Shown here one piece after another: positions 25,627 to 46,060 of a stretch of 64,000 nucleotides of DNA (position 1 is the first letter of the stretch; the number at the start of each line of letters is the position of its first letter). Source of the DNA: Candidatus Latescibacterota bacterium (GTDB taxonomy: Bacteria; Latescibacterota; UBA2968; GCA-2709665). Position numbers and translations under genes: made by a program. The DNA lies in contig OZ252100.1 in the NCBI GenBank assembly GCA_965248435.1, positions 736,001 to 800,000 on the forward strand, in the 5' to 3' direction. The notes beneath the pieces were generated by a model. That model ran no database searches, was not told the DNA's origin, and saw only the letters and a list, made by a program, of their open reading frames with translations.

Positions 25627-25708
25627 GACCACGGACCGCAGACCACAGACCGCCAAATCTAAAACCTATTTCATCCGGCGGTCTGCCGTCGGTGGTCCGC
25701 CGTCTGCC
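25627..25708. repeat. Inverted pair of heptamer tandem arrays (GACCRCA-type) in the ptsH-ptsI spacer
   Basis: GACCACG GACCGCA GACCACA GACCGCC - 22 nt - GGCGGTC TGCCGTC GGTGGTC CGCCGTC. Confidence 0.85.
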
Positions 25709-25709
25709 T

Positions 25710-25985
25710 TCAGGCCATCCCATCCTCAAATACGCCCTCGATCACACCCACCACTTTGTCTGCGGCCGCTTCCTCATCTTCGCCTTCGGTCCTAACGAGG
25801 ATCGTCGAGCCCTGTTCGGCGGCCAGCATCATCACGCCCATAATGCTCTTCCCGTTGATCTCGAGTCCATCCTTAACGAGTAGGATCTCGCACTTGAACG
25901 TTGCGGCGGCCTTGACCAAAAGGGCCGCGGGACGGGCGTGAATTCCCAGTCTGTTTTTTACGGCCGCATTCCGTTCCACCATCAA
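25710..25985 (-). CDS. ptsH: Phosphocarrier protein HPr
   Basis: GIHARPAA and NGKSIMGVMMLAA motifs. Confidence 0.96.
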   Translation of the reverse strand: MMVERNAAVKNRLGIHARPAALLVKAAATFKCEILLVKDGLEINGKSIMGVMMLAAEQGSTILVRTEGEDEEAAADKVVGVIEGVFEDGMA

Positions 25986-26021
25986 ACGGTCCTGGAGATA
26001 TCGATTTCGGCGATTCCCGAC

Positions 26022-26768
26022 CTATGAAGCCGAGTGAATGGCGTCTGCAAACGCCAGCGCGAGTGAGGCCTCACGCTGGTCCTCCAGGGCGCTCCCAATC
26101 ACGACAAATGATGCCCCCGCCGCCACCTTCGACGCCGCATCCTCCGGGCGACGAATACCTCCCCCAACGATCCTGGGAATAGAGATGTAGTCCCTTACGG
26201 CCTGAATCATCTCTTCGGGCACCATTTGTTCCGCGCCACTTCCTGCATCCAGGTAGACGCACTGCATTCCCAGGTATTCCGCGGCCAATGCGTGCGCCAT
26301 CGCGATGTCTGGCTTATCCCGCGGAACCGGCTTTGTGTTGCTTATGTATTCCACGGTCGTCTGTCTTCCGGAGTCGACCAGGATGTAACCGGTTGAAATC
26401 GGCTCCAGCCCGTAGGCCTTCAGAACCGGCGCCGCCCTCACGTGCTGCCCGATCAACAGTTCCGGATTCCGTCCACTGATCATAGAGAGAAAGAAGATCG
26501 CGTCAGCGGACGAAGAGATCTGGTTGGAGCCCGCGCCGAAGATGATGACGGGGACTTGAACGGTATGCTTGATGAGGCGGATCATCCGGTCGAATTCTGT
26601 CGAGACCAGGAAACTCCCACCGACGAGGATGGCATCAGCACCGCACTCCTCGAAGGTTGCCGCCGCCCGGACCAGATCTTCCTTGTCTGAGTGGTCCGGG
26701 TCCAACAGCACGAAGAATCCCGCTCCGCGCGCCTCACGAACGTCCATGAGTTTTTGAAAGACCGACAA
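26022..26768 (-). CDS. Geranylgeranylglyceryl phosphate synthase family (group II-like)
   Basis: LLDPD, DAILVGGS, ADAIFFLSMISGRNP, YLDAGSGA, VGGGIR. Confidence 0.9.
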   Translation of the reverse strand: MSVFQKLMDVREARGAGFFVLLDPDHSDKEDLVRAAATFEECGADAILVGGSFLVSTEFDRMIRLIKHTVQVPVIIFGAGSNQISSSADAIFFLSMISGRNPELLIGQHVRAAPVLKAYGLEPISTGYILVDSGRQTTVEYISNTKPVPRDKPDIAMAHALAAEYLGMQCVYLDAGSGAEQMVPEEMIQAVRDYISIPRIVGGGIRRPEDAASKVAAGASFVVIGSALEDQREASLALAFADAIHSAS

Positions 26769-26773
26769 GAAGC

Positions 26774-29383
26774 CTACCTCCCTTCCAGGTGCGACCTCAC
26801 AATGTCTTTCACCGCGGCCAGCGCCTCGTCCATCCTCTCGGGATGCTTTCCACCCGCCTGAGCCAGGTGTGGTTTTCCGCCTCCACCGCCCCCGACGATC
26901 TTGGCCACATCCTTCAGCACGGCCCCTGCCTCTACCCCCCGCTTCACCAGGTCATCCGTGACGACTGCGATCAGGTTCGCCTTGCCGTTCATCGTCGCAC
27001 CCAACACACCCACACCGGTCCCCAGGCCATCCCGAAGACGATCGGCCATCTCCCGGAAGCCCTCCATATCCTGAGGCTCCGCTTTCGCGGCGACCACGCG
27101 AACGCCTTCGACTTCGAAGGCACGGTGGACCAGATCTTCCATCTCTGACCCTGCCTGATCGCGGCGCAACCCGTGCAGCTCACGTTCCAGTTCCCGATTC
27201 CGAGAGATCAGATCCGACACTTTCTCCGGCAGATCGGGGACCGGCGCGTTCATCAGTCTCTCGAGCTCCGAGAGTGTCTTCCGCTCACGACGCAGCAGAC
27301 GCTCCGCCTCTCTCCCGGTGAGGGCCTCTATTCGCCTCACACCCGCAGCCGTCCCCGTCTCTGCGGTCAGCTGGAGGAGTCCGATCTGACCTGTGGATGT
27401 GACGTGTGTTCCCCCACAAAGCTCCAGGCTCACCTCACCGATTCTGACGGTTCTGACGACATCCCCGTACTTTTCGGTAAACAGCATGGTGGCCCCCATC
27501 TCACGCGCCTTGTCCAGCGTTACGTGCGAGATATCCACTGCCAGATCTGCGCGGATGGATTCGTTCACGATGACCTCGATCTCCTCTTTTTGAGCCAAAT
27601 CCAGGCCATGAAAGTGTGTAAAATCGAACCTGAGGCGATCTGGCGATACGAGAGATCCGGCCTGGTTCACGTGATCTCCGAGCACGCGGCGAAGGGCGGC
27701 GTGAAGCAGGTGTGTCGCGGTATGGTTTCGAGCCGTGTCTGTCCTGCGGTCGCGATCTACCTCGGCCTTCACGGACGCATCCGTTAGGACGTCTTTCCCA
27801 CCGCCTTCCAGTCGCCCCCTGTGAACGACTGCAGAACCCTGCCGAAGCGTGTCATCCACTCTTAATGAAAAGGAATCGTTATAGACCCTGCCAACGTCTC
27901 CAACCTGCCCTCCCGACTCCCCGTAAAATGGCGTGACATCCAGATAGACGTCGATCAACCCATCCGGGCCTGCCTGCGTGGCCACCACGGTTGCCTCCGA
28001 ACTCAGGGTCTCGTAGCCCACAAACTCTGAATGCCTCTCTGGAAGGCCGATCCGATCCTGGGCGACAAAGAGACCGCGTGTTGCCTCGCGCGACCGCGTG
28101 CGCTGTCCGGCCATCTCCCGTTCAAACCCCACTTCATCCACCTCGAGGCCCTTTTCAGACGCCATCAACTGGGTCAGGTCCAGAGGAAATCCGTAGGTGT
28201 CGTAGAGCTGAAAGGCATCGGCCCCGGAAATCCGGCCCCGCCGGCTGACCGATTCGAAGATCTCGATCCCGCGATCCAGCGTCTTTCCAAACCCCTCCTC
28301 CTCCGACTGGATCACCTGGGCGATATGAGGGGCCTGCTTCCGGACCTCTGGAAAGGCGTCCCCCATCGTGTCCGCCAAGGTTTTCGTCAGCCGATAGATG
28401 AAGGGCTCGTGGAGATCCAACGTTCGCCCGTAGCGAGCCGCGCGCCTCAAGATCCGCCGAAGGACGTAGCCCCTCCCCTCGCTCGAAGGAAGGGCGCCGT
28501 CGGCGATCGTGAAGGCAAGCGCGCGAATATGATCGGCGATCACGCGCATGGCCACGCCGCTTTCCTCAGTATATGAGGTTTCGCTTATCTCGCTGATCGT
28601 TTCGATGATGGGCACGAACAGATCTGTATCATAGTTGGAGTCCACGCCCTGAAGGATGGCACTGACCCGCTCGAACCCCATTCCGGTGTCGACGTGACTG
28701 TCCGGGAGGCGGTGGAGGCGGCCGTTCGAGTCCCGGTCGAACTGTATGAAGACCAGGTTCCAGATCTCCGTGTAGTCCGGCCCCTCCAGATCAGGGTTTG
28801 CCGACTGGGCTCCGGGATCCTCCCCAAGGTAATAATGGATCTCTGAGCAGGGACCGCACGGCCCGGTCTCTCCCATCTCCCAGAAGTTGTCTTTCTTTCC
28901 CAGACGGAGAACGCGCTCGGGCCGGATGCCGGTCATCTCGGGCCAGAGGACCTCTGACTCTTCATCCGGATCCAGCCCGTCACCCTCGTGCCCCTCGAAC
29001 ACCGTCGCCCAGAGGCGCTCGTTCGGGAGCTTCCACACATCCGTGAGCAGTTCCCAGGCCCACGCGATGGCCTCCCGCTTGAAATAGTCGCCGAAGGACC
29101 AGTTCCCCAGCATCTCGAAGAAGGTCTGGTGCTTCGTGCTGATTCCCACTTCCTCGAGATCGTTGTGTTTACCCGATACGCGGAGACACTTCTGGGAATC
29201 CACCGCGCGCCGGTAATCTCTGCTCCCGGTCCCCAGAAACACGTCCTTGAACTGGTTCATCCCCGCGTTGATGAAGAGCAGGGTCGGATCGTCTTGAGGA
29301 ACGATGGGTGCACTCGCAACCCGCGCGTGACCCTTTCCTTCGAAGAAACTCAGAAAACCTTCTCGAACTTCGTCTGAGGTCAT
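26774..29383 (-). CDS. alaS: Alanine--tRNA ligase
   Basis: DPTLLFINAGMNQFK, FEMLGNWSFGDYFK, NHTATHLLH, ELCGGTH, GGGGGKP. Confidence 0.98.
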   Translation of the reverse strand: MTSDEVREGFLSFFEGKGHARVASAPIVPQDDPTLLFINAGMNQFKDVFLGTGSRDYRRAVDSQKCLRVSGKHNDLEEVGISTKHQTFFEMLGNWSFGDYFKREAIAWAWELLTDVWKLPNERLWATVFEGHEGDGLDPDEESEVLWPEMTGIRPERVLRLGKKDNFWEMGETGPCGPCSEIHYYLGEDPGAQSANPDLEGPDYTEIWNLVFIQFDRDSNGRLHRLPDSHVDTGMGFERVSAILQGVDSNYDTDLFVPIIETISEISETSYTEESGVAMRVIADHIRALAFTIADGALPSSEGRGYVLRRILRRAARYGRTLDLHEPFIYRLTKTLADTMGDAFPEVRKQAPHIAQVIQSEEEGFGKTLDRGIEIFESVSRRGRISGADAFQLYDTYGFPLDLTQLMASEKGLEVDEVGFEREMAGQRTRSREATRGLFVAQDRIGLPERHSEFVGYETLSSEATVVATQAGPDGLIDVYLDVTPFYGESGGQVGDVGRVYNDSFSLRVDDTLRQGSAVVHRGRLEGGGKDVLTDASVKAEVDRDRRTDTARNHTATHLLHAALRRVLGDHVNQAGSLVSPDRLRFDFTHFHGLDLAQKEEIEVIVNESIRADLAVDISHVTLDKAREMGATMLFTEKYGDVVRTVRIGEVSLELCGGTHVTSTGQIGLLQLTAETGTAAGVRRIEALTGREAERLLRRERKTLSELERLMNAPVPDLPEKVSDLISRNRELERELHGLRRDQAGSEMEDLVHRAFEVEGVRVVAAKAEPQDMEGFREMADRLRDGLGTGVGVLGATMNGKANLIAVVTDDLVKRGVEAGAVLKDVAKIVGGGGGGKPHLAQAGGKHPERMDEALAAVKDIVRSHLEGR

Positions 29384-29419
29384 ATCAATCTCAACCGCGC
29401 TTCGAGCCACGTAGACCTT

Positions 29420-29905
29420 TCAGCGCCTCTCATCGGAGATCTCCGTCCACATCTGATCCGAAGCCCCCCGGGAAATGGAGCCGTCGAAGCCTCTCCGCAC
29501 GAGAAATCCATACATCCGGGATAGCGCCTGCATTCGATCCAACCCTTCGTAACGGCGACGTCTTGATTTCAGCAGGTCGAACGCAACCTCACCCGGATCG
29601 ACGTCAGCCATCATTTCGTCGAGCACCTGACCGACGATCTCCTGTTCCACGCCGCGCCGGGTCAGCTCCCGAAAAAGTCTGGGCCTGCCCATCGGGCGAA
29701 GCCGCATCCGCTCCTGGACCCAGCTTCGAGAAAAGGTCCGATCGTCGATGAGACCGACCTGCTCCAACCTCTGGAGGGCATCCTCGATCGCCTGCTTGCG
29801 GAACTGTCTGCCTCGAAGCTTGCGAACGATCTCACGACGCGTGTAGCTCCGCCTGCCCAGCAGACGCAGGGCGACGTCCTTGGCTTTGTCGACATCGGCT
29901 GTCAT
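29420..29905 (-). CDS. recX: Regulatory protein RecX
   Basis: ALRLLGRRSYTRREI, GLIDDRTF and FLVRRGF motifs; lies immediately downstream of recA. Confidence 0.9.
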   Translation of the reverse strand: MTADVDKAKDVALRLLGRRSYTRREIVRKLRGRQFRKQAIEDALQRLEQVGLIDDRTFSRSWVQERMRLRPMGRPRLFRELTRRGVEQEIVGQVLDEMMADVDPGEVAFDLLKSRRRRYEGLDRMQALSRMYGFLVRRGFDGSISRGASDQMWTEISDERR

Positions 29906-29923
29906 GTAAAACCCGCTATGCTC

Positions 29924-30055
29924 GACCGCGGACGGCTGACCGCGGACAGCTGCTGGAGACAAACAAGCTATTAACGATAGCAGAAAACGAACGACTCAAA
30001 CTCGAAAAATCACGCTGTTCATCCCGCCGTCTGCCGTCTATGGTCTGCAGTCCGC
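29924..30055. repeat. Inverted pair of heptamer tandem arrays in the recA-recX spacer
   Basis: GACCGCG GACGGCT GACCGCG GACAGCT - 73 nt - CGCCGTC TGCCGTC TATGGTC TGCAGTC. Confidence 0.8.
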
Positions 30056-30057
30056 TT

Positions 30058-31104
30058 CTACGCTGTCTCCTCGGCCACCTTGGGGGCCGATTCGTTGGCC
30101 GGCAGGCCGACCGCTTTCCTCACCTCTTCTTCGATGGTCTGGGCAACCTCGGGATTCTCTCTAAAGTACCGCTTCGCGTTCTCTCTACCCTGCCCCAGGC
30201 GATGCTCTCCGTAGGAGAACCACGTCCCGCTCTTGCTGACGATGCCGTGCAGTTCGGCCACGTCCAGGATGCTCCCCTCGCTCGATATCCCTTCCCCGAA
30301 CATCAGGTCGAATTCGGCCTCCTTGAAAGGTGCTGCCATCTTGTTCTTTACGACGCGCACGCGCACGCGATTTCCGAGTATATTCTGGCCTTCCTTGATC
30401 GCACCGATGCGCCGGATGTCCATCCTGACGGAAGAGTAGAACTTCAGGGCATTCCCTCCGCTCGTCGTCTCCGGGTTACCGAACATCACGCCGATCTTCA
30501 TCCGCATCTGGTTCGTGAAAATGACACAGGTCTTCGACTTGTTGATCGAGGACGTCAGCTTTCGCAGCGCCTGCGACATCAGCCGGGCCTGCAGCCCCAT
30601 GTGGGCCTCTCCCATCTCCCCCTCCAGCTCCGCCCTCGGTACAAGCGCCGCGACGGAATCGATGACCACCACGTCGAACGCCCCGCTTCGCACAAGGGTA
30701 TCCGTAATTTCGAGGGCTTCCTCACCGGTGTCCGGCTGAGAAATCAGCAGGTTCTCCAGGTCTACACCGATCCGCTCTGCGAGTTCCACGTTGAGTGCGT
30801 GCTCCGCGTCTACGAATGCCGATACGCCACCGCGCTTCTGTGCCTCGGCAATCACGTGAAGGGCGAGGGTCGTCTTCCCCGACCCCTCGGGCCCGTAGAT
30901 TTCGACCACACGGCCGCGAGGCACCCCCCCGGCACCGAGCGCGATATCCAGCGCGATGGATCCGGTAGGAATCACCGGGACCGGCTCATACCCGGCGTTA
31001 TCGCCGCCCAAACGCATGATGGCCCCCTTGCCAAACTGCTTTTCGATCTGGGTGATGGCCAGTTCCACCGCTCGCTTCTTTCCGTCTACCTCTTGCTTCG
31101 CCAT
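30058..31104 (-). CDS. recA: Recombinase RecA
   Basis: [44 protein letters not shown]. Confidence 0.99.
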
Positions 31105-31198
31105 TTCACCGCCCCTCCTCTACAGACGACAATCGAATTGTGTGTTCGTGTTGGCCGGCGGTCAACTCTAACCGGTCAACTTGGGAATTCAGTGTCCA

Positions 31199-31227
31199 AA
31201 TATACTGAACATATGTATATCGGTCAA
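31199..31227 (-). promoter_or_regulatory. recA sigma70 promoter with a candidate LexA box in the spacer
   Basis: TTGACC-17 nt-TATATT on the minus strand; the spacer contains ATAC-ATAT-GTTC (31207-31218), resembling GAAC-N4-GTTC. Confidence 0.65.
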
Positions 31228-31241
31228 GCGCCGGCCGGATT

Positions 31242-31805
31242 TCAGGCCGGGTCGCCGAACATGCCACAACCCAGGGTCGTATACCTGGCCCCATCCCGGT
31301 GGAGATCACTCCTGATCACCTGGACGCGGTCTACGGAAAAGGGGTCGCCCTCAGACAGGTCGACGCACGCCCGTGCCAGCGACACGGGTCGACGCGAGAC
31401 ACGCCCCAGCGTGACGTGAGGGTGAAACTTTCGCTCCTCGCCCGAGAATCCGAGCGGATCCAGGGCCTGCTCGACCCTCTCCTGAATGCTGGAGAGGGCC
31501 TCCAACTCCCCCTCGATCCCAACCCATACAACCCTTGCGCGATCGGATTGAGGAAAGCCGCCAATACCCGCGACACGGAGTGTAAGAGGGCGAAGCCCGC
31601 CGGCAACCGCATTGACCGCCTCCACGACGTGTGGAACGCGCTCCTCTTCCACCTCCCCCAGAAACTTCAGAGTAAGGTGAAACCCGTGAGGTCGGACCCA
31701 CCGAATCCCCGGCAGGTCGCTGCGGAGCCGTTCGATCGTGTAATTCAGGTGTTCGCGAACCTTCTCAGGCAACTCAATCGCAACGAACGTCCGCAGGCCA
31801 GCCAT
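31242..31805 (-). CDS. thpR: RNA 2',3'-cyclic phosphodiesterase
   Basis: RTFVAI and two HxT motifs (FHLTLKFLG, FHPHVTLGR). Confidence 0.92.
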   Translation of the reverse strand: MAGLRTFVAIELPEKVREHLNYTIERLRSDLPGIRWVRPHGFHLTLKFLGEVEEERVPHVVEAVNAVAGGLRPLTLRVAGIGGFPQSDRARVVWVGIEGELEALSSIQERVEQALDPLGFSGEERKFHPHVTLGRVSRRPVSLARACVDLSEGDPFSVDRVQVIRSDLHRDGARYTTLGCGMFGDPA

Positions 31806-32255
31806 TCACGCCACCCAGACGAAGATCAGGCCTCGCAAAATCAAGTTTCCGTAGATCCCCGCTACCACGTCGTCTAACACGATACCCCAACCTCCCGGAA
31901 GGGCCTCAGACTGAGCTGCCGGGAAGGGCTTGATGATGTCCAGGACGCGAAAGACGAAGAACCCCACCACCCCCAGCAGCACGGAAGAGGGCAGAAGACA
32001 CATCGTCACGAAAAAGCCCACGATTTCGTCGATCACGACGTAGGACGGATCGTTTCCCCAGACCGCTTCGCCGGCGGAAGAAGCGTAGACCGCAATCAAA
32101 AACAGGGGCAGGATGAGGAGGGCCCAGCCCAGCAGATTTAGAGGGGGAAGCAGACAGTAGATCCCAAGGGCGACGGCCGATCCAACGGTCCCTGGAGCGA
32201 TATGGGCATAGCCAGCAAAGAAACCGGTGGCGATGAGCCGCGTGGCAAAATTCAA
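31806..32255 (-). CDS. pgpA: Phosphatidylglycerophosphatase A
   Basis: APGTVGS, DPSYVVIDEIVG, FRVLDIIKPFP, GIVLDDVVAG. Confidence 0.93.
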   Translation of the reverse strand: MNFATRLIATGFFAGYAHIAPGTVGSAVALGIYCLLPPLNLLGWALLILPLFLIAVYASSAGEAVWGNDPSYVVIDEIVGFFVTMCLLPSSVLLGVVGFFVFRVLDIIKPFPAAQSEALPGGWGIVLDDVVAGIYGNLILRGLIFVWVA

Positions 32256-32280
32256 GCCGACCTCGAGTTCACTCGCTCCA

Positions 32281-32916
32281 TCAGCCCCGATTGTGGTCCC
32301 AAAAGTACTTCACGCCCGATACCAGGGCCAGGAGGGTCACAGCCCCAACAAGCCCGTTCAACACGAGATGGGATGAGGCATCGACCAGGACAAGGGGTTG
32401 GGCGCTCCACTGCGCCTCGACGACCCGGGTGCTGATAAAGACAAGGATGCCGAAGATGAGAACGTGCTGCAGAGCCGTCTTCCACTTGGCCAGCCTGGAG
32501 GTCACGACAGGCTTTCCCCTGCGTATCCCGTAGATACGAAGCGCAGTAATAACAAAATCTCTGACCAACAAGACGACCACGAGCCACGCGTCCACCATCC
32601 CCAGGAGAATGAAAGAGATCAGGGCGGAAGAGACCAGAATCTTGTCTGCGAGGGGATCCAGGAACCGTCCCAGCTCGGTCACCGTCCCCTGGCGCCTGGC
32701 GATCCACCCGTCGAAGTCAGTCAGCGACGCCACAGCGAAGACGAGAAGCGCCACGTGCTTCCAGACCAATCCGTCCGCGAAGATCAGCGCGAGAAAGACC
32801 GGCGTCAGCGCGATTCGGATCACGCTCAACACATTGGGGAGCGTAACCAATTTGCCCGACCGACCGGATTCGGGCAGACCTTCTGCTGTCCGATCCAATG
32901 TTTGGGCCTGCTCCAC
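32281..32916 (-). CDS. pgsA: CDP-diacylglycerol--glycerol-3-phosphate phosphatidyltransferase
   Basis: LPNVLSVIRI and DGWIARR..GRFLDPLADK; adjacent to pgpA. The CDP-alcohol motif is one residue short (TDFDG). Confidence 0.85.
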   Translation of the reverse strand: MEQAQTLDRTAEGLPESGRSGKLVTLPNVLSVIRIALTPVFLALIFADGLVWKHVALLVFAVASLTDFDGWIARRQGTVTELGRFLDPLADKILVSSALISFILLGMVDAWLVVVLLVRDFVITALRIYGIRRGKPVVTSRLAKWKTALQHVLIFGILVFISTRVVEAQWSAQPLVLVDASSHLVLNGLVGAVTLLALVSGVKYFWDHNRG

Positions 32917-32918
32917 GC

Positions 32919-33512
32919 CTAAAGCTCCCTTCGCCCTTCCAGAGCGCGTGACAGAGTCACCTGATCTGCGAGCGCCAGGTCGCTCCCGACGGGCAGTCCT
33001 CGGGCAATCTGTGTGATGTGCACCTTGAACGGCTCCAGACACTGTTTGAGATATTGTGCCGTGGCATCCCCTTCCACCGTCGGACCGTTTGCAAGAATCA
33101 CCTCCTGCACGTTTCCCTTTTCCAGCCGAGCCAGCAGTTCCCGGATATGCAGGTGCTCTGGCCCGACCCCATCCAGCGGGGAAATCCGTCCGTCCAGCAC
33201 GTGGTAGACGCCTCGATGTGCGCGGGCGTACTCGATGGCCAGAAGGTCACCTACGGTGTCGACGACCATCACCGTCGAGTGATCCCGGTTTGGATTCGAA
33301 CAGATGTCACAAGGATCTTGCTCAGTCAGACTGAAACAGATGGAGCACTGCTTAACCCGCGTCTTCACCTCCATAATCAACTCGGTAAGCGCGTGAACCT
33401 CTTTCGTATCCCACGTCAAGATCTCGAGGGCGATCCGTCTCGCCGATTTTTCTCCGATGCCCGGCAGCCGGTTCAATCCTGAAATCAACCTGTCGATGAC
33501 ATCGGACGCCAC
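32919..33512 (-). CDS. recR: Recombination mediator RecR
   Basis: LPGIGEKSARR, the C4 zinc finger, YHVLDGRISPLDG and TVEGDATA. Confidence 0.96.
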   Translation of the reverse strand: MASDVIDRLISGLNRLPGIGEKSARRIALEILTWDTKEVHALTELIMEVKTRVKQCSICFSLTEQDPCDICSNPNRDHSTVMVVDTVGDLLAIEYARAHRGVYHVLDGRISPLDGVGPEHLHIRELLARLEKGNVQEVILANGPTVEGDATAQYLKQCLEPFKVHITQIARGLPVGSDLALADQVTLSRALEGRREL

Positions 33513-35568: not shown

Positions 35569-35665
35569 ACTGTTCTCCGAACGAGATAGGATGTGATTAT
35601 CGAGACGAAGCCCACAGCCGCGGTCTGTGGGCTGCCGTCCGATATACGAAATACGATGTTTTTAC

Positions 35666-35939
35666 GGCCGTGCACCCAGCTTCGATCCCTCATCCCGGCG
35701 GGCTCAAAAAGCGCCAGCTCCCACCAGGTCGCCCTGCGGCACACAGGCCGAACCGCCTACCGCTGCTACCTTCCGGTCCTGACGGGGTTTGGCGAAGGCC
35801 CATTGCGCAGGACCTGGCGATCGACACCGCTTTCTTTCTGAACCGCAACCCGGAATGCGAGACCTCAGGCGTGGGAATTCGACCCCGCTAAGCGGATTGC
35901 GGGTAACAGGGCACCGCTACCTCCCCATCTAGCACGGCC
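35666..35939 (-). ncRNA. ffs: Signal recognition particle RNA, large (Alu-domain) bacterial type
   Basis: 5' end GGCCGTGCTAGATGGGGAGGTAGCGGTGCCCTGTTACCCGCAATCCGC; helix 8 TCAGGACCGGAAGGTAGCAGC; the ends pair (GGCCGTGC / GCACGGCC); lies upstream of dnaX. Confidence 0.93.
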
Positions 35940-36009
35940 ATAAATCGCGTCGTTCGTCGCTCGTCTATCGTGGATCGCAACCGGATTCTCACTGGGGCTG
36001 GTTGCAACG

Positions 36010-36351
36010 TCAACTCCTGAGCCGTTTTATAAGATTGGTGAGCATCCGGCTCTCGTGATCGATGCTGTCTTCCAGATTAGAAAAACCCTCGTCGCTCACG
36101 AACTCTCTCCGACGTGCGATGATAAGCTGCGTCTCTAATTCCGAACAAGAACCGAGTGCTACGTAACAAAACTGGTATTCTTTGGAATACAGGCGTGCAA
36201 ACCTTCTGCTATGTTCGATGGAATCGAGATGGCCGTTCTCTGCATATGTGGTGCTAATCCGTATGTCTCTTCTTTGCGAAAGTCTTTCGCCGCGTCATAA
36301 ACAAGATCTACGATCTCGATCCCTTTTTTCTTTATAGCTCTTTGCTCTCAC
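36010..36351 (-). pseudogene. Four-helix-bundle (23S rRNA IVP/TIGR02436-like) pseudogene flanked by inverted heptamer arrays
   Basis: Pieces in shifted frames: KSYKE / KGIEIVDLVYD..FRKEETYGL..MQRTAISIPSNIAEG / ALGSCSELETQLIIA..RMLTNLIKRL. Arms at 35945-35979 and 36368-36388. Confidence 0.8.
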
Positions 36352-36432
36352 ATTGTGTATCCCCGCTTGCGAACGACGAACGACGATCCGGTCGTGTCCG
36401 TTAGGACACGACCCACGATCTGCGGGTTTTGA

Positions 36433-36509
36433 TGGTGGAGCAGATGGGGCTCGAACCCACGACCTCCAGAGTGCGATTCTGGCGCTCTCCCAAACTGAGC
36501 TACTGCCCC
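36433..36509 (-). tRNA. tRNA-Ala(CGC)
   Basis: Full cloverleaf, anticodon arm CCAGA-ATCGCAC-TCTGG, G3:U70 pair, encoded CCA. Confidence 0.95.
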
Positions 36510-37055: not shown

Positions 37056-37145
<90 letters not shown>

Positions 37146-37149
37146 GTGA

Positions 37150-38316: not shown

Positions 38317-38411
38317 CGAAGGTCCGTGTGCGACACGACAGAAACTTGGTTGATCGAAGGATTTGGAGCGACGGATGGGGAGATCCGCCCGTGTCGATGT
38401 CCAGCATGAGG

Positions 38412-38501
<90 letters not shown>

Positions 38502-38516
38502 AAAAAGCAAAAGAAG

Positions 38517-38630
38517 GTATCTCGTATTTCGTAACTCGTATCTCGTATCTCGGGGCGCACACCATAGCCAGTCAGAACTCGCTACCCCTTCACCTCGCGA
38601 ATCGACGAGATACGTTTCACGAGATACGAC
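38517..38630. repeat. Inverted heptamer arrays (GTATCTC)n / (GAGATAC)n between tadA and tRNA-Ser
   Basis: GTATCTC GTATTTC GTAACTC GTATCTC GTATCTC ... GAGATAC GTTTCAC GAGATAC. Confidence 0.85.
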
Positions 38631-38631
38631 C

Positions 38632-39060
38632 TTATCGCCGATCTTTGAAGAACGCCTTTAGCATTTCCGAACAAGGCCTTTCGAGGACGCCGCTTCGAAC
38701 TTCCAGTCGGTGGTTCAGCCGACGATCCTCCACGACATTTCTAAGCGATCCACACGCGCCCGACTTCGGGTCCTTCGCGCCAAACACAAGCCTCGAAACG
38801 CGGGCAAGCACGAGTGCCCCGGCGCACATCGCGCAGGGCTCCAACGTGACGTAGATCGTCGCCCCTTCCAGTCTCCACGACTGGAGGGATTCCGCTGCGG
38901 CACGGATAGCCAGCATCTCAGCGTGCGCCGTCGGATCCTGGTTCGTGCGCGTGAGATTGTGGCCTCGACCGACGGCCTCGCCGCCCAGAAACAGGACGGC
39001 GCCGACACACACCTCACCTTTCTGAGCGGCAGCCTTCGCCTCATCCAGCGCGAGCTGCAT
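38632..39060 (-). CDS. tadA: tRNA adenosine(34) deaminase
   Basis: DPTAHAE, YVTLEPCAMCAGA, GAKDPKSGACGS. The true start may lie slightly upstream. Confidence 0.93.
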   Translation of the reverse strand: MQLALDEAKAAAQKGEVCVGAVLFLGGEAVGRGHNLTRTNQDPTAHAEMLAIRAAAESLQSWRLEGATIYVTLEPCAMCAGALVLARVSRLVFGAKDPKSGACGSLRNVVEDRRLNHRLEVRSGVLERPCSEMLKAFFKDRR

Positions 39061-39289
39061 TCCCGCTTCGTCTACGTCCAGAGGACCTTCCTCGATCTAA
39101 GTCATTGAACCTTCGAGACTCAGCCCTGCGCGGAATGAATTAATATACTGATTTCGCGAAACCAGGTCAAATAAGATTGCCGGCGAAAAAACTGGCGTAA
39201 CTCCTTGTGGGAGCAAGAAAAACGTCAAATCGAACGCTGATTGCTTCTGCTGCCGAAGGGGTCCAGGAATTGGTGCTGAATCACGGGGA

Positions 39290-40591
39290 TTACAGCCTGC
39301 AGCAAAACAGAGGGATCAGCATCTCGTGTTGACTCAGTCCGCCGTGCCTCCCGCCTACCAGGTCGGAGGGTGCGGCGCCTTTCCAGTAAGGATAAAAAAA
39401 GGCGTTTGTTTGTCTCGTCAGCAGCAAAAGATCTCCGATTCGCTCGTTGACATCGGGCCGAATCGGTCCAGGGCCCCAAAGGCCACCCCTGAGCGCATCT
39501 CTCGAAGACAACACGACTGCGCGGTCCCCGAGGGCCTTTCTCATATATGCCCTGGACTCAAGAGTGCAGCCGTGGTTGAGGTAGAGGTATGATGACCTGC
39601 CCGTCCCGGTAGGCGGGAGTCTGAGCTCGTCCCTGAGCCGCTTGAACCGGGGGACCGAAATGACATCCTGAGCCTCCACGCCGACGTGTCCGTGGTCCGA
39701 CATGAACAGCAGACCTGCTCGGCTTCCTCTGCGGCCTCCAAGCGGCCGGAGCAGCTCCTCTTGAAGCGAAAAGCAGAAGCTTCTCAACTCGGCTTCCGGC
39801 TCTCTCCCATCTGTGCCATAGTTGTGCAGAATCGTGTCGAGGGCACCCCAGTAGGCCCAGATACACGCCGGCTCCTCTGGATCGGTCTCCACTAACTTTC
39901 TGATCTGCACGAACATGTCGGATGAACTCACGAAGGGAACGACCCGCGTCGCGCCGTCGTAGAGCATCTGCGAGAGTCCGCTTCGACTGATCGCGTCTCG
40001 TATGAGGCAGGTGGACGGAATCCCGGCGCGCTTCAGGTATGTGTGAACGGTTGGCACGCCCAGGAGCGCTTCCCCGTCACCGGGGTAACGCAACAGTCGT
40101 GTGGGCCGTTCGTCCGACTCGGGGCTCAACCGGATCATATTCGCGATGAATCCGCGCTCGGGCAGGTACATCCGATAGCCTGTGATGCCGTGTCCAGTCG
40201 GTGGGAGTCCGGTGTGAAGCGTGGAGATCGCCACGGCAGTCGTTGAAGGAAAGACGGAGGTCAGAGGAACAAATCGCCCCTTGCGAGCGAGTGTGTTCAG
40301 AGCCAGCCCCCTGTCTTCGGCCATCTGTTTCTGTGCTGCGAGAAAGCCGAGGGCGTCCATCAGCAACACGACGAGCTTCCGACATCCCTTCAGCTGATCC
40401 CCAAGCGCTTCCTGAGCGAGAGGCGGCGTCGGGAATCCTTTGACGCCGAAGTGGGACAGAACCGTCGCCGGCACATTGGCCAGGCTGTACCCATCATACG
40501 CCGGCAGGACGAACTCGTCCGGCAGCCGTTCGCCAGCTAACGTCGCGGGACGCTTGAGTCGCTTCAGAATCTGTCGGGCGATCTTGTTCAT
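39290..40591 (-). CDS. Alkaline phosphatase superfamily (type I phosphodiesterase/NPP) protein
   Basis: LLMDALG, SVFPSTT, LDTILHNYG, SDHGH, GRHGGLS..EMLIPL. Confidence 0.88.
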   Translation of the reverse strand: MNKIARQILKRLKRPATLAGERLPDEFVLPAYDGYSLANVPATVLSHFGVKGFPTPPLAQEALGDQLKGCRKLVVLLMDALGFLAAQKQMAEDRGLALNTLARKGRFVPLTSVFPSTTAVAISTLHTGLPPTGHGITGYRMYLPERGFIANMIRLSPESDERPTRLLRYPGDGEALLGVPTVHTYLKRAGIPSTCLIRDAISRSGLSQMLYDGATRVVPFVSSSDMFVQIRKLVETDPEEPACIWAYWGALDTILHNYGTDGREPEAELRSFCFSLQEELLRPLGGRRGSRAGLLFMSDHGHVGVEAQDVISVPRFKRLRDELRLPPTGTGRSSYLYLNHGCTLESRAYMRKALGDRAVVLSSRDALRGGLWGPGPIRPDVNERIGDLLLLTRQTNAFFYPYWKGAAPSDLVGGRHGGLSQHEMLIPLFCCRL

Positions 40592-40605
40592 AGATGCATC
40601 AAAAT

Positions 40606-40751
40606 CTGGAGTGTTGGGGGAATTGAGTAATCAAGAAAAGAGTAGCTAGTGTTGGGGGAATGGGGTGTTGGAGCAATGGAGTGTTGGAAAATCAAGGCTA
40701 AGATACTCGTTTTTCCCAATCCTCCAACACTCCAATACTGCAATACTCCAG
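40606..40751. repeat. Inverted octamer arrays (TGGAGTRW)n / (WYACTCCA)n
   Basis: TGGGGGAA TGGGGTGT TGGAGCAA TGGAGTGT ... CTCCAACA CTCCAATA CTGCAATA CTCCAG. Confidence 0.8.
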
Positions 40752-41107
40752 ATTCGCTTTGTGTCGTCTACTGCCGCCCTATTGCGGCACTCGCATCTTT
40801 TCGGATACGATTTCGGCCTCGGTCCTTCTTCTCACGCTAAGATCGTTAAATGATATAAGTGGTTTATAATTAAATATTTAACGTATAAAATCGCTTGAGG
40901 GGAATCTAGTCCACTGACTCGGCATAGCCTTTGCAATAATCTCACATAGCCATCACAATCATCAGTTATATTATCCAATGAATTGCAGGCTGGGAACAAC
41001 TGCGTTGAGGTTGCATCCCGTGCCCCGGGATGCGTAAAACGCTGGGGGCATAGATTTGATTCAGGATAGGTCAACGTTTTAGAAACTCGATAAGGAGGGA
41101 AGAGACA

Positions 41108-42388
41108 ATGAGCAGGTACGTGAAGCCCTTATGGGCGGCGTGCGCGGCCGGGCTGCTTCTGGTTGGCTGCGGCAACGAGCAGGTACTTTCTCCCCAGTCA
41201 GGACCGGCACCTCTGGCGAAGCTGGCTCTCGCAAGCCACGCGGGCGAGGTCGAAGTCGAGGTAACCGTAATGCGTGACGGACTGCCTACAGAGGATATCG
41301 AAGTGGCTTTCTCCCGATCGGTTTCAGGGCGATCGCCTGAGTACGACTGGGAAGGGACGACCGATTCGGACGGCACCGTCTCAATCGAAATCGAATCCAC
41401 ATCATCGCGCGGCACATCGGGATATTACGTTGCGCGCGCGACCGATGCGATCACCGGCGATGTCCTGGGGCGATGGGGAAGCATTCCGCTCACCGGTGGA
41501 AACGAAGTGGCGCTCACGTTGGCGATCGACGGTGCCGCCACCGTCACGTCGAGCCAAAGCATCACGCCGACCACGCTCACACTGCGGTTCAGCGGGATCC
41601 AGCCGCTGTCGAACGGATTTCACTTTGAGGGATGGGCGATCATCGGGGGATCCCCGTTCACGACGGGCAAGTTCAACGTGGATGACGCCGGCAGGTTGAT
41701 CGACCTGAGCGGCAATATCATCCAGAGCGGCAGATTCCGGACGGGCATCGATTTGAGCGGAACAACGGCCATCGTCCTTACGATCGAGCCAGACGGCGAC
41801 ACGGACACCGTCCCCGCCGACACCCACTACCTGGCCGGAGATGTCGCCGACCGTTCATCGGCTTTGACTGTGGGTCACCCCTCAGCACTGGGGGACGACT
41901 TCTCCAGCGCATCCGGAAACTATATTCTTGCCACGCCGACGGACGATCCGGATGGCAACGAAAACAGCGGTCTCTGGTTCCTGGATCTGTCTTCGGGCAG
42001 TCCGGCACAGGGCCTGGAGCTCCCAGTCCTGCCCGCCGGTTGGAAATACGAAGGCTGGGCGGTCACGGGCGGCCAGCCGGTGACCACGGGGACCTTTACG
42101 GACCCGGCGGCAGCCGACGAGAGCGCGCCGTTTAGCGGCGTCAATGACGGACCCCCATTCCCCGGGGAAGACTTCCTGAACAATGCTCCGAGCGGTCTGT
42201 CCTTCCCGACAGACCTTGCGGGGGGTGCTGCGGTCATCTCGATCGAGCCTTCACCGGATGACGGCACGAGTCCATTTACGCTTAAGCCGTTAGTGGGTGA
42301 CATCCCCGCCGATGCCACGGATCACGTAACTTATTCCGTAACCAACATGGCTTCGGGTTTCCCTACCGGCTCTGCAACAATCAGGTAG
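41108..42388 (+). CDS. Lipoprotein with duplicated EGW..P.TTG.F (RskA C-terminal-like) modules
   Basis: Lipobox LVG-C; internal repeats HFEGWAIIGGSPFTTGKF and KYEGWAVTGGQPVTTGTF, each followed by (L/I)(T/S)IEP. Confidence 0.7.
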   Translation: MSRYVKPLWAACAAGLLLVGCGNEQVLSPQSGPAPLAKLALASHAGEVEVEVTVMRDGLPTEDIEVAFSRSVSGRSPEYDWEGTTDSDGTVSIEIESTSSRGTSGYYVARATDAITGDVLGRWGSIPLTGGNEVALTLAIDGAATVTSSQSITPTTLTLRFSGIQPLSNGFHFEGWAIIGGSPFTTGKFNVDDAGRLIDLSGNIIQSGRFRTGIDLSGTTAIVLTIEPDGDTDTVPADTHYLAGDVADRSSALTVGHPSALGDDFSSASGNYILATPTDDPDGNENSGLWFLDLSSGSPAQGLELPVLPAGWKYEGWAVTGGQPVTTGTFTDPAAADESAPFSGVNDGPPFPGEDFLNNAPSGLSFPTDLAGGAAVISIEPSPDDGTSPFTLKPLVGDIPADATDHVTYSVTNMASGFPTGSATIR

Positions 42389-42396
42389 TGTGTACA

Positions 42397-42433
42397 AAGA
42401 AAGAAGGGCGACCGACGGTCGCCCTTCTTTCTT
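42397..42433. terminator. Bidirectional intrinsic terminator
   Basis: Perfect inverted repeat AAGAAAGAAGGGCGACCG-A-CGGTCGCCCTTCTTTCTT between convergent genes. Confidence 0.8.
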
Positions 42434-42439
42434 GCTATT

Positions 42440-42866
42440 CAATTGCGGATTTCGGAATGCGGATTGCGGATTGACTCTTCAATTCCTGTTTCTTTTCGCC
42501 GTTTTAATCGAAGACACCGTGATAGCAACGATCTGGCCGGCTTCATCCAATAGATCAACTATACGATTCCTGTCCATCAAATCGGATTCAATGAGGAGTT
42601 CCATCCAATACATGCTTTCATCTGCCTCTTCTTCTACGATACCCATCTTGGCAACGAATTCGGCCTGCGATCTCGCCCGACATGCAGCCCTGTAGTTGGC
42701 TCCCACAGACGTCCCACACCTCAGCAACTGCCTTCCCAAGACGTCGCTTGTGTTGCCTTTTGGCAACTCTTCGACGAGCTTTATAACCCGAAGTGCAAAG
42801 GCCCTAGTCCTTCCCTCCATTTCATCACGATTCACTCCGCAATCCCCAATCCACAATCCGCAATTG
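42440..42866. mobile_element. Putative heptamer-arm cassette carrying a four-helix-bundle gene
   Basis: Arms (ATTGCGG)x4 at 42442-42469 and (TCCGCAA)x4 at 42836-42863, with a perfect 11-bp terminal IR CAATTGCGGAT / ATCCGCAATTG. Mobility is inferred. Confidence 0.55.
42479..42835 (-). CDS. Four-helix-bundle protein (TIGR02436/23S rRNA IVP family)
   Basis: RTRAFALRVIKL, QLLRCGTSVGANYRAACRARSQAEFVAKMGIVEEEADESMYWMELL. Confidence 0.92.
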   Translation of the reverse strand: MNRDEMEGRTRAFALRVIKLVEELPKGNTSDVLGRQLLRCGTSVGANYRAACRARSQAEFVAKMGIVEEEADESMYWMELLIESDLMDRNRIVDLLDEAGQIVAITVSSIKTAKRNRN

Positions 42867-42868
42867 GA

Positions 42869-43600
42869 TCACCTCCGTTTCTCCACATCCCCGATTTCAC
42901 GAATTCGTTCGCCATACTCACGACTCTCGAAGGGCGTCGTGATCCACGCCGCGACAATCTCCTGCGCCAGTGTATCCCCGACCGTTCCCACACCAAGACA
43001 GAGTAGATTCGCGTCCACGTGTGACCGCGCGTATTTGGCGGCCGTCACGTCGCTGCACGCAGCGGCACGCACGCCTGAGACCTTGTTCGCCACGATCGCG
43101 GAGGGTGTTCCACCTCCGTCGATCACGATGCCGGTCACCACTTCTCCCTTCGCAACGGCCATAGCCACAGCCTCGGCGACCTTTACGTATCCCGCATCCG
43201 TCGTTGACGCCGGCGCATAATCGACCACCTGACGACTCAGCCTGCGCAGGGTCCCGGTGATCGTTTCCTTCAGCGCGAGTCCCCTTCGATCCGCGCCGAG
43301 TCCGATCGCCCCCTGCGTGCGCCCCGCCGAAGTTGGGGCCTGACCCTCGTCCCCCCGGACCTCGACAAGCTTGATCCCTTTATCCCTGAGTGTCTCGAGG
43401 GCCAAAGGGGTAATGATCCCCCCTTTTACGACCCGAACCTCCACCGCCCCCTGCCTGGCCGCCTCAAGGACAAACTCCTGAGTCAGGAGCCGAACGGGCA
43501 GACCGCCTCCCGGACCCTCTGGCCTGTCCCCGTCCGATATGCGGGACCCCAGCCGTCGAATCACCTCGGCCACGACCCGCTCGATCTGCGCCTGATTCAT
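42869..43600 (-). CDS. RpiB/LacAB family sugar-phosphate isomerase-like protein with N-terminal extension
   Basis: IGLGADRRG, SAIVANKVSGVRAA, ARSHVDANLLCLG, WITTPFE. The catalytic CGTG is replaced by DGGG. Confidence 0.8.
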   Translation of the reverse strand: MNQAQIERVVAEVIRRLGSRISDGDRPEGPGGGLPVRLLTQEFVLEAARQGAVEVRVVKGGIITPLALETLRDKGIKLVEVRGDEGQAPTSAGRTQGAIGLGADRRGLALKETITGTLRRLSRQVVDYAPASTTDAGYVKVAEAVAMAVAKGEVVTGIVIDGGGTPSAIVANKVSGVRAAACSDVTAAKYARSHVDANLLCLGVGTVGDTLAQEIVAAWITTPFESREYGERIREIGDVEKRR

Positions 43601-43649
43601 GTCCTGTGCTGCCCGCCTCACTCCCTGAATATTGATCCTCCGCGTCCGC

Positions 43650-44459
43650 TTACGTCCCCACCTTCCGCCCCCAGGTCCCGGTCACTTCCGGCTCCGGGTT
43701 ACCGAGCTCCGATTCATCCGATTCGACAACGCGGTTGAGCCTGTCCGGATGGTTCGTAATGATCCCTCCCACACCCATCTCGATCATGTCACTCATATCC
43801 TGCTCCAGGTCCACCGTCCAGACCCAGAATCCCATCGCCCGGCTCAGGAACATCTGAACCAGGTCGGGGCGGGCAGCCCTGTAGTTCAGCGCCAGTGCGT
43901 TCGCGCCGATCTTCAAGACCCGCTTGACCACGCCCGTCTTGCGGCGGAGAGCGGCCTCGCTGCCGGTCATCACAAAAGCTGTAGGGATGCGCCGATCCAG
44001 CCGATTCACCGTCCGGATCGCCGGCCCATAAAAGGATTGAATGATCGCCCGGGACTGTGCCCGCATAGATCGGATCACAGTCACCGCCCGCTCCGCGGCC
44101 TCCTCCGTCTTCGCCTCGATCAGGAGCGGGGCCTGCTTGTGAACGAGGTCGAGCGCTTCTTCCAGGGTCGGGATCCGCTCGTTTCGGAAGGAGGGGTCGA
44201 ACCAACTCCCGGCATTCAGCTTCTTGACCTGGGCCAGTGTCATCGTATCCACGGGACCGCTTCCGTTTGTCGTCCGGTCCACCGTCCGATCGTGGATGGT
44301 GACCGGGACCCCGTCCGCCGTCAGGTGGATATCCACCTCCACCAGATCCACGCCGATCTCCAGGGCCTTCTCGATCGCGGCCAGCGTATTCTCGGGAGCG
44401 AGCGCCGACGCGCCCCGATGCGCGATACGCATCACGGGGGGGCGAAGGATTTTGGTCAC
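43650..44459 (-). CDS. Glycerophosphodiester phosphodiesterase
   Basis: IAHRGASALAPENT, EVDIHLTADG..HD, IEAK, WVWTVD, GIITNHPD. Confidence 0.92.
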   Translation of the reverse strand: MTKILRPPVMRIAHRGASALAPENTLAAIEKALEIGVDLVEVDIHLTADGVPVTIHDRTVDRTTNGSGPVDTMTLAQVKKLNAGSWFDPSFRNERIPTLEEALDLVHKQAPLLIEAKTEEAAERAVTVIRSMRAQSRAIIQSFYGPAIRTVNRLDRRIPTAFVMTGSEAALRRKTGVVKRVLKIGANALALNYRAARPDLVQMFLSRAMGFWVWTVDLEQDMSDMIEMGVGGIITNHPDRLNRVVESDESELGNPEPEVTGTWGRKVGT

Positions 44460-44638
44460 CGGCGAGCGCCGCCGTCCAAACGGGAGGGTTTTCGCCTTCC
44501 TGGGTTTTCTGACCCGCATCTCTGCTCTCAAAAAAGGGGGAATAAAGGGGAGGCACTTCGATTCGCTTGATGCAAAATAGACCGCCGGCGTTCTGTTGTC
44601 AAGCAATCTCAATTCGTCGTTCGTGGATCGGGAAAACC

Positions 44639-44667
44639 GTATCTCGTATCTAGTATCTCGTATTTCG
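44639..44667. repeat. Left heptamer arm (GTATCTC)n; partner arm at 46026-46060
   Basis: GTATCTC GTATCTA GTATCTC GTATTTC. Confidence 0.8.
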
Positions 44668-44703
44668 GGGGCTGATGTTACCGCGAAAAAGTGGACAGGT
44701 TAG

Positions 44704-45600
44704 TTAAGCAGCAAGGAGCTGCTCGTAGTTATGTGGACTTTTGTAGCCCAGGGTAGAGTGCCTCCGCCTGTGGTTGTAGAAACGGATGTAGTTTGAGATC
44801 CTTCTTCGCGCCTGGTTGACGGTGGCATAGGTATCGCGATGGACGCGTTCGATTTTCAGCGTTGAGAAGAAGGACTCTGCCACCGCATTGTCAAAGCAGT
44901 CGCCTTTGCGACCCATACTAGACCGAATGCCGTTTTCAGCGACGGTATTTTGGAAAGCTTCACTGGTATACTGAGATCCACGATCAGAGTGAAAGATCAA
45001 TTCCCTTGGGGGCTTTCGAGTTGCACGTGCCTTTTTGAAGGCTTCGACCGCTAGCTCCGCAGTCAAGGAGGCCCGGAGCGACCATCCGACGATCTTCCGG
45101 GAGAACAGGTCCATCACGACGCACAGATAGGCGTGGCCTCCCACGATGGGGATGTAGCTGATGTCCGAGACCCACTTCTGGTTGACTTCATCGGCGTTGA
45201 ACGCTCGACCCAGCAGGTCCGGAGACACGATGGCGTTTGAGGCTGCCTTTGTCGTGCACCGGAATTTGCGTGGGGTCCCAATGGCCTTCAAGCCCATCTT
45301 CTGCTTGATCCGGGCGATCCGGCTGGCACTGCAGACGATCCCGGCCTCGTTGAGCTCCTCCGTGATGCGAGGCGTGCCGTAAGTCTGGTCGGTCTCCCGG
45401 TGGATGGCTTTGATGTGGAGCGCCAGCACTTGGTTTTCTTGCTCCCGTTGGCTGACCGGACGGCTTTTCCAGGCGTAGTAACCGCTTTTGGAGATCCCAA
45501 GGGTCTTGCACATATGGGTTACTGAAAATCGGTCGCGGTTCTCCTCCACCAGGTGGAAGTTCATCTTTGGCGTCTGCTGAAAACGGCTAAGGCTTTTTTT
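44704..45600 (-). CDS. IS3 transposase OrfB (DDE), expressed via -1 frameshift
   Basis: WVSDISYI, DLFSRKIVGW, FHSDRGSQY, DNAVAESFFSTLK, YNHRRRHSTLGY. Confidence 0.93.
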   Translation of the reverse strand, partial: KKSLSRFQQTPKMNFHLVEENRDRFSVTHMCKTLGISKSGYYAWKSRPVSQREQENQVLALHIKAIHRETDQTYGTPRITEELNEAGIVCSASRIARIKQKMGLKAIGTPRKFRCTTKAASNAIVSPDLLGRAFNADEVNQKWVSDISYIPIVGGHAYLCVVMDLFSRKIVGWSLRASLTAELAVEAFKKARATRKPPRELIFHSDRGSQYTSEAFQNTVAENGIRSSMGRKGDCFDNAVAESFFSTLKIERVHRDTYATVNQARRRISNYIRFYNHRRRHSTLGYKSPHNYEQLLAA

Positions 45601-45860
45601 AAAATGTCCCTCTCTTCGCACAGATACTCGACCTGTCGCTTCAACTCGAAGATCTCCAGGTCCTTCGACTTGCGACGGCCTTTCCCGGGGAAGGCTTCCT
45701 GCTCATCCTCAACGAAGTCCCTCACCCAGCGACGCAACAACCCAACAGGCATGTCCAATTCTGTCGCGACATCTTTCGGAGTGCGGTCTTCAACCAGAAT
45801 CTGCTGCACCGCTTCGACTTTGAACTCTCGGGAATACTTCCGACGCTTCCTGACACCCAT
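45561..45860 (-). CDS. IS3 transposase OrfA
   Basis: RRKYSREFKVEAV HTH and ERDILKKA. Confidence 0.92.
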   Translation of the reverse strand: MGVRKRRKYSREFKVEAVQQILVEDRTPKDVATELDMPVGLLRRWVRDFVEDEQEAFPGKGRRKSKDLEIFELKRQVEYLCEERDILKKALAVFSRRQR

Positions 45861-46025
45861 AGAAAGCCTCCTTGGATATGGGGAGACATTCTACCTATAC
45901 AAAAACCTTAACCGAGTGTCCACAAAATAGGTAACCCCAGGCTCGTCATCTTGCCAGTTCCTTAGTTTCACGGAATTCCCGTGCCATTCCCGTGATCGCC
46001 TTTCTGAACTACTCGCATATCCGAC

Positions 46026-46060
46026 GAGATACGCTTCACGAGATACGAGATACGAGATAC
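46026..46060. repeat. Right heptamer arm (GAGATAC)n
   Basis: GAGATAC GCTTCAC GAGATAC GAGATAC GAGATAC, nearly identical to the arm at 38603-38629. Confidence 0.85.

Follow-up and report, generated by a model that had tools for sequence, protein, structure and literature searches.

Inverted arms of tandem heptamers and octamers at gene junctions of a Latescibacterota genome, and their association with PF05635 genes

The DNA considered here is a stretch of 64,000 nucleotides from contig OZ252100.1 of a Candidatus Latescibacterota bacterium (G000:C1:736001-800000; this whole stretch is called the window), whose host genome comprises 5.67 Mb, has 56.6% G+C and is 97.5% complete. The closest matching DNA besides the source genome comes from seawater metagenomes. 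Between 23.7 and 46.2 kb, where the gene map places nearly every gene on the minus strand, seven intergenic sites carry inverted arms built of tandem heptamers or octamers. Two of these arm pairs enclose a gene of the four-helix-bundle family PF05635, and such a gene with its arms is called a cassette in the following, whereas arm pairs that lack the gene are called gene-less hairpins. The sites, together with one doubtful hairpin near them, are listed below, with the strand given for the two cassettes.

25627..25708: gene-less hairpin of the GACCGCA family; arms 25627-25654/25677-25704, 28 nt, 79% complementary
29924..30055: GACCGCG-family hairpin, degenerate, in the spacer from the recA stop (30058) to the recX start; loop about 65 nt long
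35598..35644: GC-rich simple hairpin between the signal recognition particle (SRP) RNA and dnaX; fold z -5.39; about two heptamer-like units alongside; membership in the element family doubtful
35945..36388, minus strand: decayed cassette between tRNA-Ala and the large SRP RNA; PF05635 pseudogene 36037-36338; arms 35948-35963/36370-36385, 16 nt, 94% complementary, unit CGTCGTT
38517..38630: ACGAGAT-family hairpin, gene-less, with tRNA-Ser (38413-38501) on one side and the tadA stop (38632) on the other; arms 38517-38552/38605-38629, unit GTATCTC, 5.1 copies; fold z -4.21
40603..40754: element of the octamer family whose arms are nested, located upstream of the phosphodiesterase start (40591), a member of a dispersed repeat of about 100 nt; fold z -4.60
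42437..42869, minus strand: intact cassette; PF05635 gene 42479-42856 enclosed by ATTGCGG-type arms 42437-42477/42829-42869 (41 nt, 83% complementary, unit ATTGCGG)
44632..46067: ACGAGAT-family hairpin with an IS3-family insertion in its loop; arms 44632-44667/46024-46067 (30 nt, 90% complementary, unit CGTATCT), insertion about 44672-45950

An initial annotation of this DNA had claimed inverted tandem 7/8-mer arms at seven sites, and a repeat search together with Tandem Repeats Finder (TRF) recovered them at 7/7. The region 25000-47000 holds nine period-7/8 arrays, six of them with a TRF score of at least 40, while 30 dinucleotide shuffles of the same region gave a mean of 1.3 and a maximum of 3 arrays, with zero at that score. 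A further remnant that had been placed at about 35610 is unconvincing, as it is a simple hairpin rich in G+C, accompanied by no more than about two heptamer-like units. The proximity of arms to upstream stop codons, also part of that annotation, agrees with the gene map, since the gap measures 2-5 nt at four upstream genes: ptsH (stop 25710, arm 25704-25708), recA (stop 30058, arm about 30055), tadA (stop 38632, arm 38629-38630) and the rpiB-like gene (stop 42869-42871, arm 42866-42869). The first hairpin occupies the whole ptsH-ptsI spacer (ptsI start 25622), and its RNA fold of -56.3 kcal/mol has a z of -7.57 against shuffles. At 29924..30055 the arms exist, as a period-14 array at 29924-29952 with a partner near 30020-30055, but the stem proposed there does not stand out: the z is only -0.79, with 41/200 shuffles folding equally well, and only its outer arms pair, in the centroid fold alone.

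The intact cassette, whose neighbouring genes are the rpiB-like gene and a convergent one, adjoins the rpiB-like stop codon on one side and, on the other, a terminator-like hairpin (42398-42435). Its PF05635 gene (minus strand) is matched by Pfam at E 3.4e-16 and by PDB entry 2rld, which contains five chains, at E 1.1e-19, and in the minimum-energy RNA fold of 42430-42875 the arms close the whole gene (z -4.31). The gene of the decayed cassette, also on the minus strand, is broken by a stop at codon 2 and by a frameshift after the NIAEG motif. Two enclosed four-helix-bundle genes, one intact and one broken, had been described, and both were found. The decayed cassette is flanked by two stable-RNA genes on the same strand, a setting nearer to that of an intervening sequence (IVS) in rRNA than to an mRNA operon. 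The seventh pair departs from the initial description in two respects: short loops had been assigned to all pairs without the gene, which does not apply to 44632/46067, and no transposase was said to be encoded, which is true of the cassettes, whose gene-bearing copies encode PF05635 only, and untrue of this pair. It encloses an element of the insertion sequence (IS) family IS3, with an rve transposase at 44704-45621 and orfA at 45561-45860, plus about 95 nt of loop by sequence reading. This IS3-family element has only two copies in the genome (window 44672-45950 and G000:C1:4936385-4937652), both of which start 2-5 nt past a heptamer array (CGTATCT in the window, TCGTGGA at the other site), and it may prefer heptamer arrays or hairpins as targets.

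The genes among which these sites are set run as follows, in order of increasing coordinate.

minus strand, protein genes of the first part: ptsI, ptsH, PcrB-family gene, alaS, recX, recA, LigT, pgpA, pgsA, recR, dnaX
35668-35937: large SRP RNA
36433-36509: tRNA-Ala
after tRNA-Ala: cyclophilin-like gene, tRNA-Ser (37056-37145), amidohydrolase-like gene, tRNA-Ser (38413-38501)
next: tadA, phosphodiesterase (start 40591), plus-strand anti-sigma-like gene
next: PF05635 gene 42479-42856, rpiB-like gene, GDPD gene, IS3 element
46122-46197, plus strand: tRNA-Asn, beyond the IS3 element

The PF05635 gene and the arms are associated throughout this genome and beyond it. There are 14 PF05635 matches in 12 places, and 11/12 of the places have a 7/8-mer array within 200 nt; two of the paralogues weakly match the bAvd model. 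For each gene the 300 nt on its upstream side were compared with the 300 nt on its downstream side, and the best inverted match gave the flank score, with 28 lying at about the 99th percentile of controls. A score of at least 28 was reached at 6/9 loci in this genome and at 16/26 loci in 17 related genomes, compared with 17/1370 control small genes, and those 17 controls include four PF05635 genes, six genes with integron-attC-like repeats and three that lie between ordinary hairpins. Across phyla, 60 of the 79 analysable loci (of 80, Methanophagales archaea included) score at least 28, as against 2/144 control windows shifted by 950 nt in the same loci, and period 7 and its multiples dominate among the arms; this survey was drawn from a narrow alignment and samples the NIAEG-type branch of PF05635 only. 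These counts bear out the association between arm pairs and four-helix-bundle genes that the initial annotation had supposed. In the relative G005, a PF05635 gene lies between arms that open with the same words as the first hairpin of the window.

Some of the copies in this genome are not independent, since five of them each precede a paralogue of a protein of about 500 residues without a Pfam match (63-82% identical), which leaves about five independent cases, each with a different unit. Six such paralogues were located (L001:1750-3327, L002:1760-3283, L003:1674-3194, L004:1724-3283, L005:1769-3274 and L006:2920-4425), of which five follow a PF05635 cassette and one follows an ATTGCGG-armed insert. 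Two segments with ATTGCGG-type inverted arms, L005:1341-1741 and L005:3271-3671, are 93.5% identical and flank a single paralogue. Their inserts were tried as PF05635 remnants and rejected, as tblastn gave E 0.04 or worse, over the arm only. A separate observation concerns small genes bounded by GTTA...TAAC-ended, integron-attC-like inverted repeats, which occur at G000:C1:3853588-3858680, 1442749, 2068809 and 4653866; three adjacent genes flanked in this way suggest a chromosomal cassette array.

The cassettes come and go among relatives. PF05635 is carried by 17/31 related genomes, in 0-5 copies per relative, with none in G001 of the same genus, and where it is found in different genomic contexts, homology is limited to about 430-520 nt around the gene. 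At one operon junction of the sister genus the cassette is filled in three genomes, present as a remnant in three, and without any gene remnant in one; the remnants keep the first and last few codons of the gene and the downstream arm, and this deletion series is decay in place. Close to the window itself, a contig from run X8 (2,834 letters, depth 2) aligns with 40653-42465 and 42882-43839 at 38 differences in 2,771 (about 98.6% identical) and has 64 letters where the window has 416 (42466-42881), so that a near-identical strain lacks the intact cassette. The full, pseudogenised and empty states that had been postulated as life stages are therefore all represented, which supports that idea. 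X8 contains the decayed cassette (28 gap letters), and in X8 contigs of other organisms the SRP RNA and tRNA-Ala are joined by about 40 letters. The X8 contigs give no cover across the recX-recA hairpin and end at 38517-38630, at 40603-40754 and at the left arm 44632-44667, and hence carry no allele information there. In G001, which is 78% identical, the ptsH-ptsI, recX-recA and tRNA-SRP junctions are occupied by different sequence, at recX-recA by another repeat family, and the spacers are too diverged for an exact definition of the empty site. The ptsI-ptsH spacer of G001 (L049:760-1500) measures 740 nt, compared with the 82-nt hairpin in the window, and has an inverted repeat of about 20 nt at its boundaries, in which it resembles a small insertion of the non-autonomous kind.

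Genome-wide, TRF found 575 period-7 and 237 period-8 arrays, or 863 arrays once these were merged with periods 14 and 16. Among arrays of at least three units, 328/365 are intergenic, although 83% of the genome is coding. The intergenic period-7/8 arrays comprise 155 with three whole units, 146 with four, 15 with five, 5 with six and 3 with seven, so that unit number topped out near 4-5. An exception is an octamer array of 22.6 units at G000:C1:4620081-4620261 (L014:3082-3262), which forms the left arm of an otherwise ordinary hairpin. The largest unit families are ACCCGGT (84), AATCCGC (74) and ACGAGAT (71), followed by the octamer group, ACGATCC, the GACCGCA group, AACGACG and others. For 210/863 arrays, a partner exceeding the null 99th percentile was found in inverted orientation no more than 150 nt away, and about 139 candidate hairpins, a few of them not heptamer-built, fall into at least eight sequence families. 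The alignment of the octamer family covers 36 copies among the 47 octamer-unit hairpins listed; these share conserved ends beyond the repeats as well as part of the loop, which makes them homologous dispersed elements of about 100 nt and not arrays made independently in place. Their orientation relative to transcription is weakly biased, with 18 in the same and 9 in the opposite direction by script (27/36 copies lie between same-strand genes) and about 19 versus 8 after correction by eye. The preference for gene ends that had been claimed is seen in the hairpins as a whole, since 38/143 edges lie within 5 nt of a facing stop codon when 15.8 would be expected from random placement in the same spacers, while starts are avoided at short range (7/123 edges within 5 nt of a facing start codon, versus 11.5 expected).

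The explanation that we favour, with a probability of roughly 55%, is that the sites belong to one class of selfish insertion cassette, of the same kind as the open reading frame (ORF)-bearing IVS of 23S rRNA, and that the gene-less hairpins derive from it by internal deletion. A full copy would consist of a PF05635 gene (S23p/Avd-like, pentamer-forming) between inverted arms, each of about 4-5 tandem heptamers or octamers. Internal deletion would convert full copies into gene-less hairpins that retain the arms and the sequence just inside them, and these may persist, or else spread, in the form of dispersed repeats of about 100 nt, in the manner of MITEs (miniature inverted-repeat transposable elements) or repetitive extragenic palindromic sequences (REPs). 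The arms could serve as the cis ends of the element, probably acting at the DNA level because their mismatches are strand-symmetric, and the pentameric protein may read the tandem units, about one unit per subunit. Where the element is transcribed within an operon, RNase III might cleave the paired arms, as it does in rRNA, and thereby render the insertion tolerable.

Several results weigh against this explanation. The cassette-free X8 contig has a depth of only 2, and the sequence of its 64 letters was not read. Arrays of the AATCCGC (74 arrays), ACGATCC and AACGACG families are mostly solo, whereas almost every octamer array belongs to a hairpin, so that the inverted layout is typical without being universal. 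No two of the aligned octamer copies are identical, so that no recent transposition is seen. In this genome no gene-bearing copy exists for three of the large families (ACGAGAT, the GACCGCA group and ACGATCC), and ATTGCGG arms also wrap the two inserts of about 300 nt at L005, which have no PF05635 similarity. The decayed gene of the window is about 74% identical to ACCCGGT-armed paralogues (one 42-residue stretch, by eye) and yet has AACGACG arms, which is awkward for a strict pairing of protein and unit. Array density is not tied to gene presence in 400-kb samples of five relatives analysed with TRF: G019 and G004, without a PF05635 match, have 37 and 28 arrays per 400 kb, while G010, with four copies of the gene, has four arrays. 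Finally, the 99 gene-less hairpins contain no sense-strand excess of G·U over A·C mismatches (106 versus 101, p 0.78), nor do the cassettes (99 versus 131, counted in 84 of the 103). No selection for an RNA stem is thus visible and the pairing looks strand-symmetric, which leaves the RNA-stem role that the initial annotation gave to the arms without backing outside rRNA. The RNA-mediated spread suggested there fares no better, since the genome has no RVT_1 match at E of 0.001 or below and no template/variable repeat pair, and a retroelement link was rejected for lack of RVT_1.

The same arrays and genes could be read in other ways, one of which is a host regulon. According to this explanation PF05635 proteins would be trans-acting nucleic-acid binders and the dispersed hairpins their functional sites, serving as 3'-end stabilisers, processing sites or insulators, while the genes would be autoregulated by adjacent sites and the hairpins would not be decayed mobile elements at all. 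Cassette arms and dispersed arrays do share unit families (ATTGCGG, octamer, ACCCGGT, AACGACG), the ceiling of 4-5 units fits a pentamer, and the hairpins sit just past stop codons. The array-rich genomes G019 and G004 nevertheless have no PF05635 match, no cognate gene accompanies the largest families of this genome, the PF05635 gene is present in some close relatives but absent from others and decays in place, and the sense-strand G·U bias is absent, on account of which we regard a regulon as unlikely. It is quite improbable, in our estimation, that the hairpins are repeats of the REP type, or of the type of their hairpin-forming doublets (REPINs), moved by a Y1 transposase, either a REP-associated tyrosine transposase (RAYT) or an IS200-like one, with the PF05635 genes as mere passengers. 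The hairpins are dispersed, intergenic and palindromic like REPINs, and the genome has five Y1_Tnp matches, two of them strong; however, both strong genes are flanked by a different palindrome of 26 nt and have no 7/8-mer array within 1 kb, two of the three weak matches are near only a short array within 1 kb, and the link between PF05635 and arms spans phyla. A RAYT link was rejected. The two strong genes (G000:C1:2292534-2292875 and 3762381-3762722), each flanked by copies of a perfect-type palindrome of 26 nt that bears no relation to the heptamer arrays, look like a separate REP/RAYT-like system in the same genome.

That the arrays are ordinary slippage microsatellites, i.e., heptamer simple sequence repeats whose inverted partners and nearby genes are coincidental, is disfavoured and, in our judgement, very improbable. 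Heptamers are over-represented in bacteria (main text of PMC4692102), many arrays here are solo, and unit number differs among Coxiella strains (accessible text of PMC4990558). Against slippage, the number of arrays shows no smooth decay but falls tenfold above four units, 210/863 of them have an inverted partner beyond the null 99th percentile within 150 nt, the element ends are conserved beyond the repeats, and the association with the gene is strong.

The favoured reading as a selfish cassette can be extended, tentatively and with no great likelihood, to the protein itself. The trp RNA-binding attenuation protein (TRAP) reads triplet repeats, and by analogy the PF05635 pentamer might be a ring-shaped, sequence-specific reader of 4-5 heptamers, one per subunit, and the element-encoded factor that founds and spreads the hairpin families. 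Were this true, the heptamer repeats of bacteria, gene-less intergenic hairpins and rRNA IVS would be products of one unrecognised kind of mobile element, the "transposition" protein of which would be non-enzymatic. To our knowledge, no function is known for PF05635/S23p, a very large family of which structures have been solved, and we know of no explanation for the long-noted excess of heptamer repeats in bacteria or of any known origin for the rRNA IVS. The locus and the surveys place all three in one picture, that of a cassette of gene plus arms and its gene-less derivatives. If the protein reads the repeats, it would exemplify a new principle by which a mobile or regulatory element works; otherwise the cassettes are still a selfish insertion, widespread and tolerated by operons.

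Among known systems, the nearest is the ORF-bearing IVS of 23S rRNA. According to the accessible text of PMC4990558, the Coxiella IVS has a 28-bp terminal stem that is cut by RNase III and an S23p ORF in decay, and upstream of this ORF stand tandem heptamers, 2-3 of them depending on the strain; the same text cites ORF-bearing IVS also in Leptospira, Brucella and Xanthomonas, and a homopentameric S23p in Xanthomonas. Like the cassette of the window, the Coxiella IVS, in helix 45, holds a PF05635/S23p gene within a long stem of terminal inverted repeats, and the likeness extends to the tandem heptamers at the stem and to the decay of the ORF. The elements of the window differ in that they adjoin protein-coding, tRNA and SRP-RNA genes and do not lie in helix 25 or 45 of 23S rRNA, in that gene-less copies are dispersed in about 139 places, and in that RNase III excision is shown for rRNA only.

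Short tandemly repeated repetitive (STRR) sequences of cyanobacteria are comparable intergenic heptamer repeats. The main text of PMC4692102 (Rehm et al. 2015), which also reports that heptamer repeats are over-represented in bacteria, describes 183-186 GGGAATC arrays per genome in Xanthomonas, mostly of four units, with 70-75 convergent, hairpin-capable pairs. The intergenic heptamers of Xanthomonas and Nostoc resemble those described here in being tandem, mostly of four units and arranged in convergent pairs; they are read there as G-quadruplex formers, whereas most units here are not G-rich. A term search of that main text gave no occurrence of 'S23', 'intervening sequence' or 'four helix'. 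Our literature search, which covered the main texts of articles, found no publication uniting these facts into one element class.

REPs and REPINs are tied to RAYT transposases. As with the hairpins described here, REPs and REPINs are dispersed intergenic palindromic doublets in lineage-specific families (PMC3116915), and a further likeness is that inverted copies of the repeat proper to the genome stand on either side of a single gene. However, the flanked gene here is a four-helix bundle without a known catalytic domain, the Y1 genes have palindromes of their own, and the heptamer repeats persist in genomes without a PF05635 gene. The Avd protein of diversity-generating retroelements is related in fold and family, and the accessible text of PMC10053308 notes that PF05635 resembles it, although RVT_1 and template/variable repeats are lacking in the present genome. 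With MITEs, lastly, the elements have in common their terminal inverted repeats and their dispersed copies with conserved ends, as seen in the 36 aligned octamer copies.

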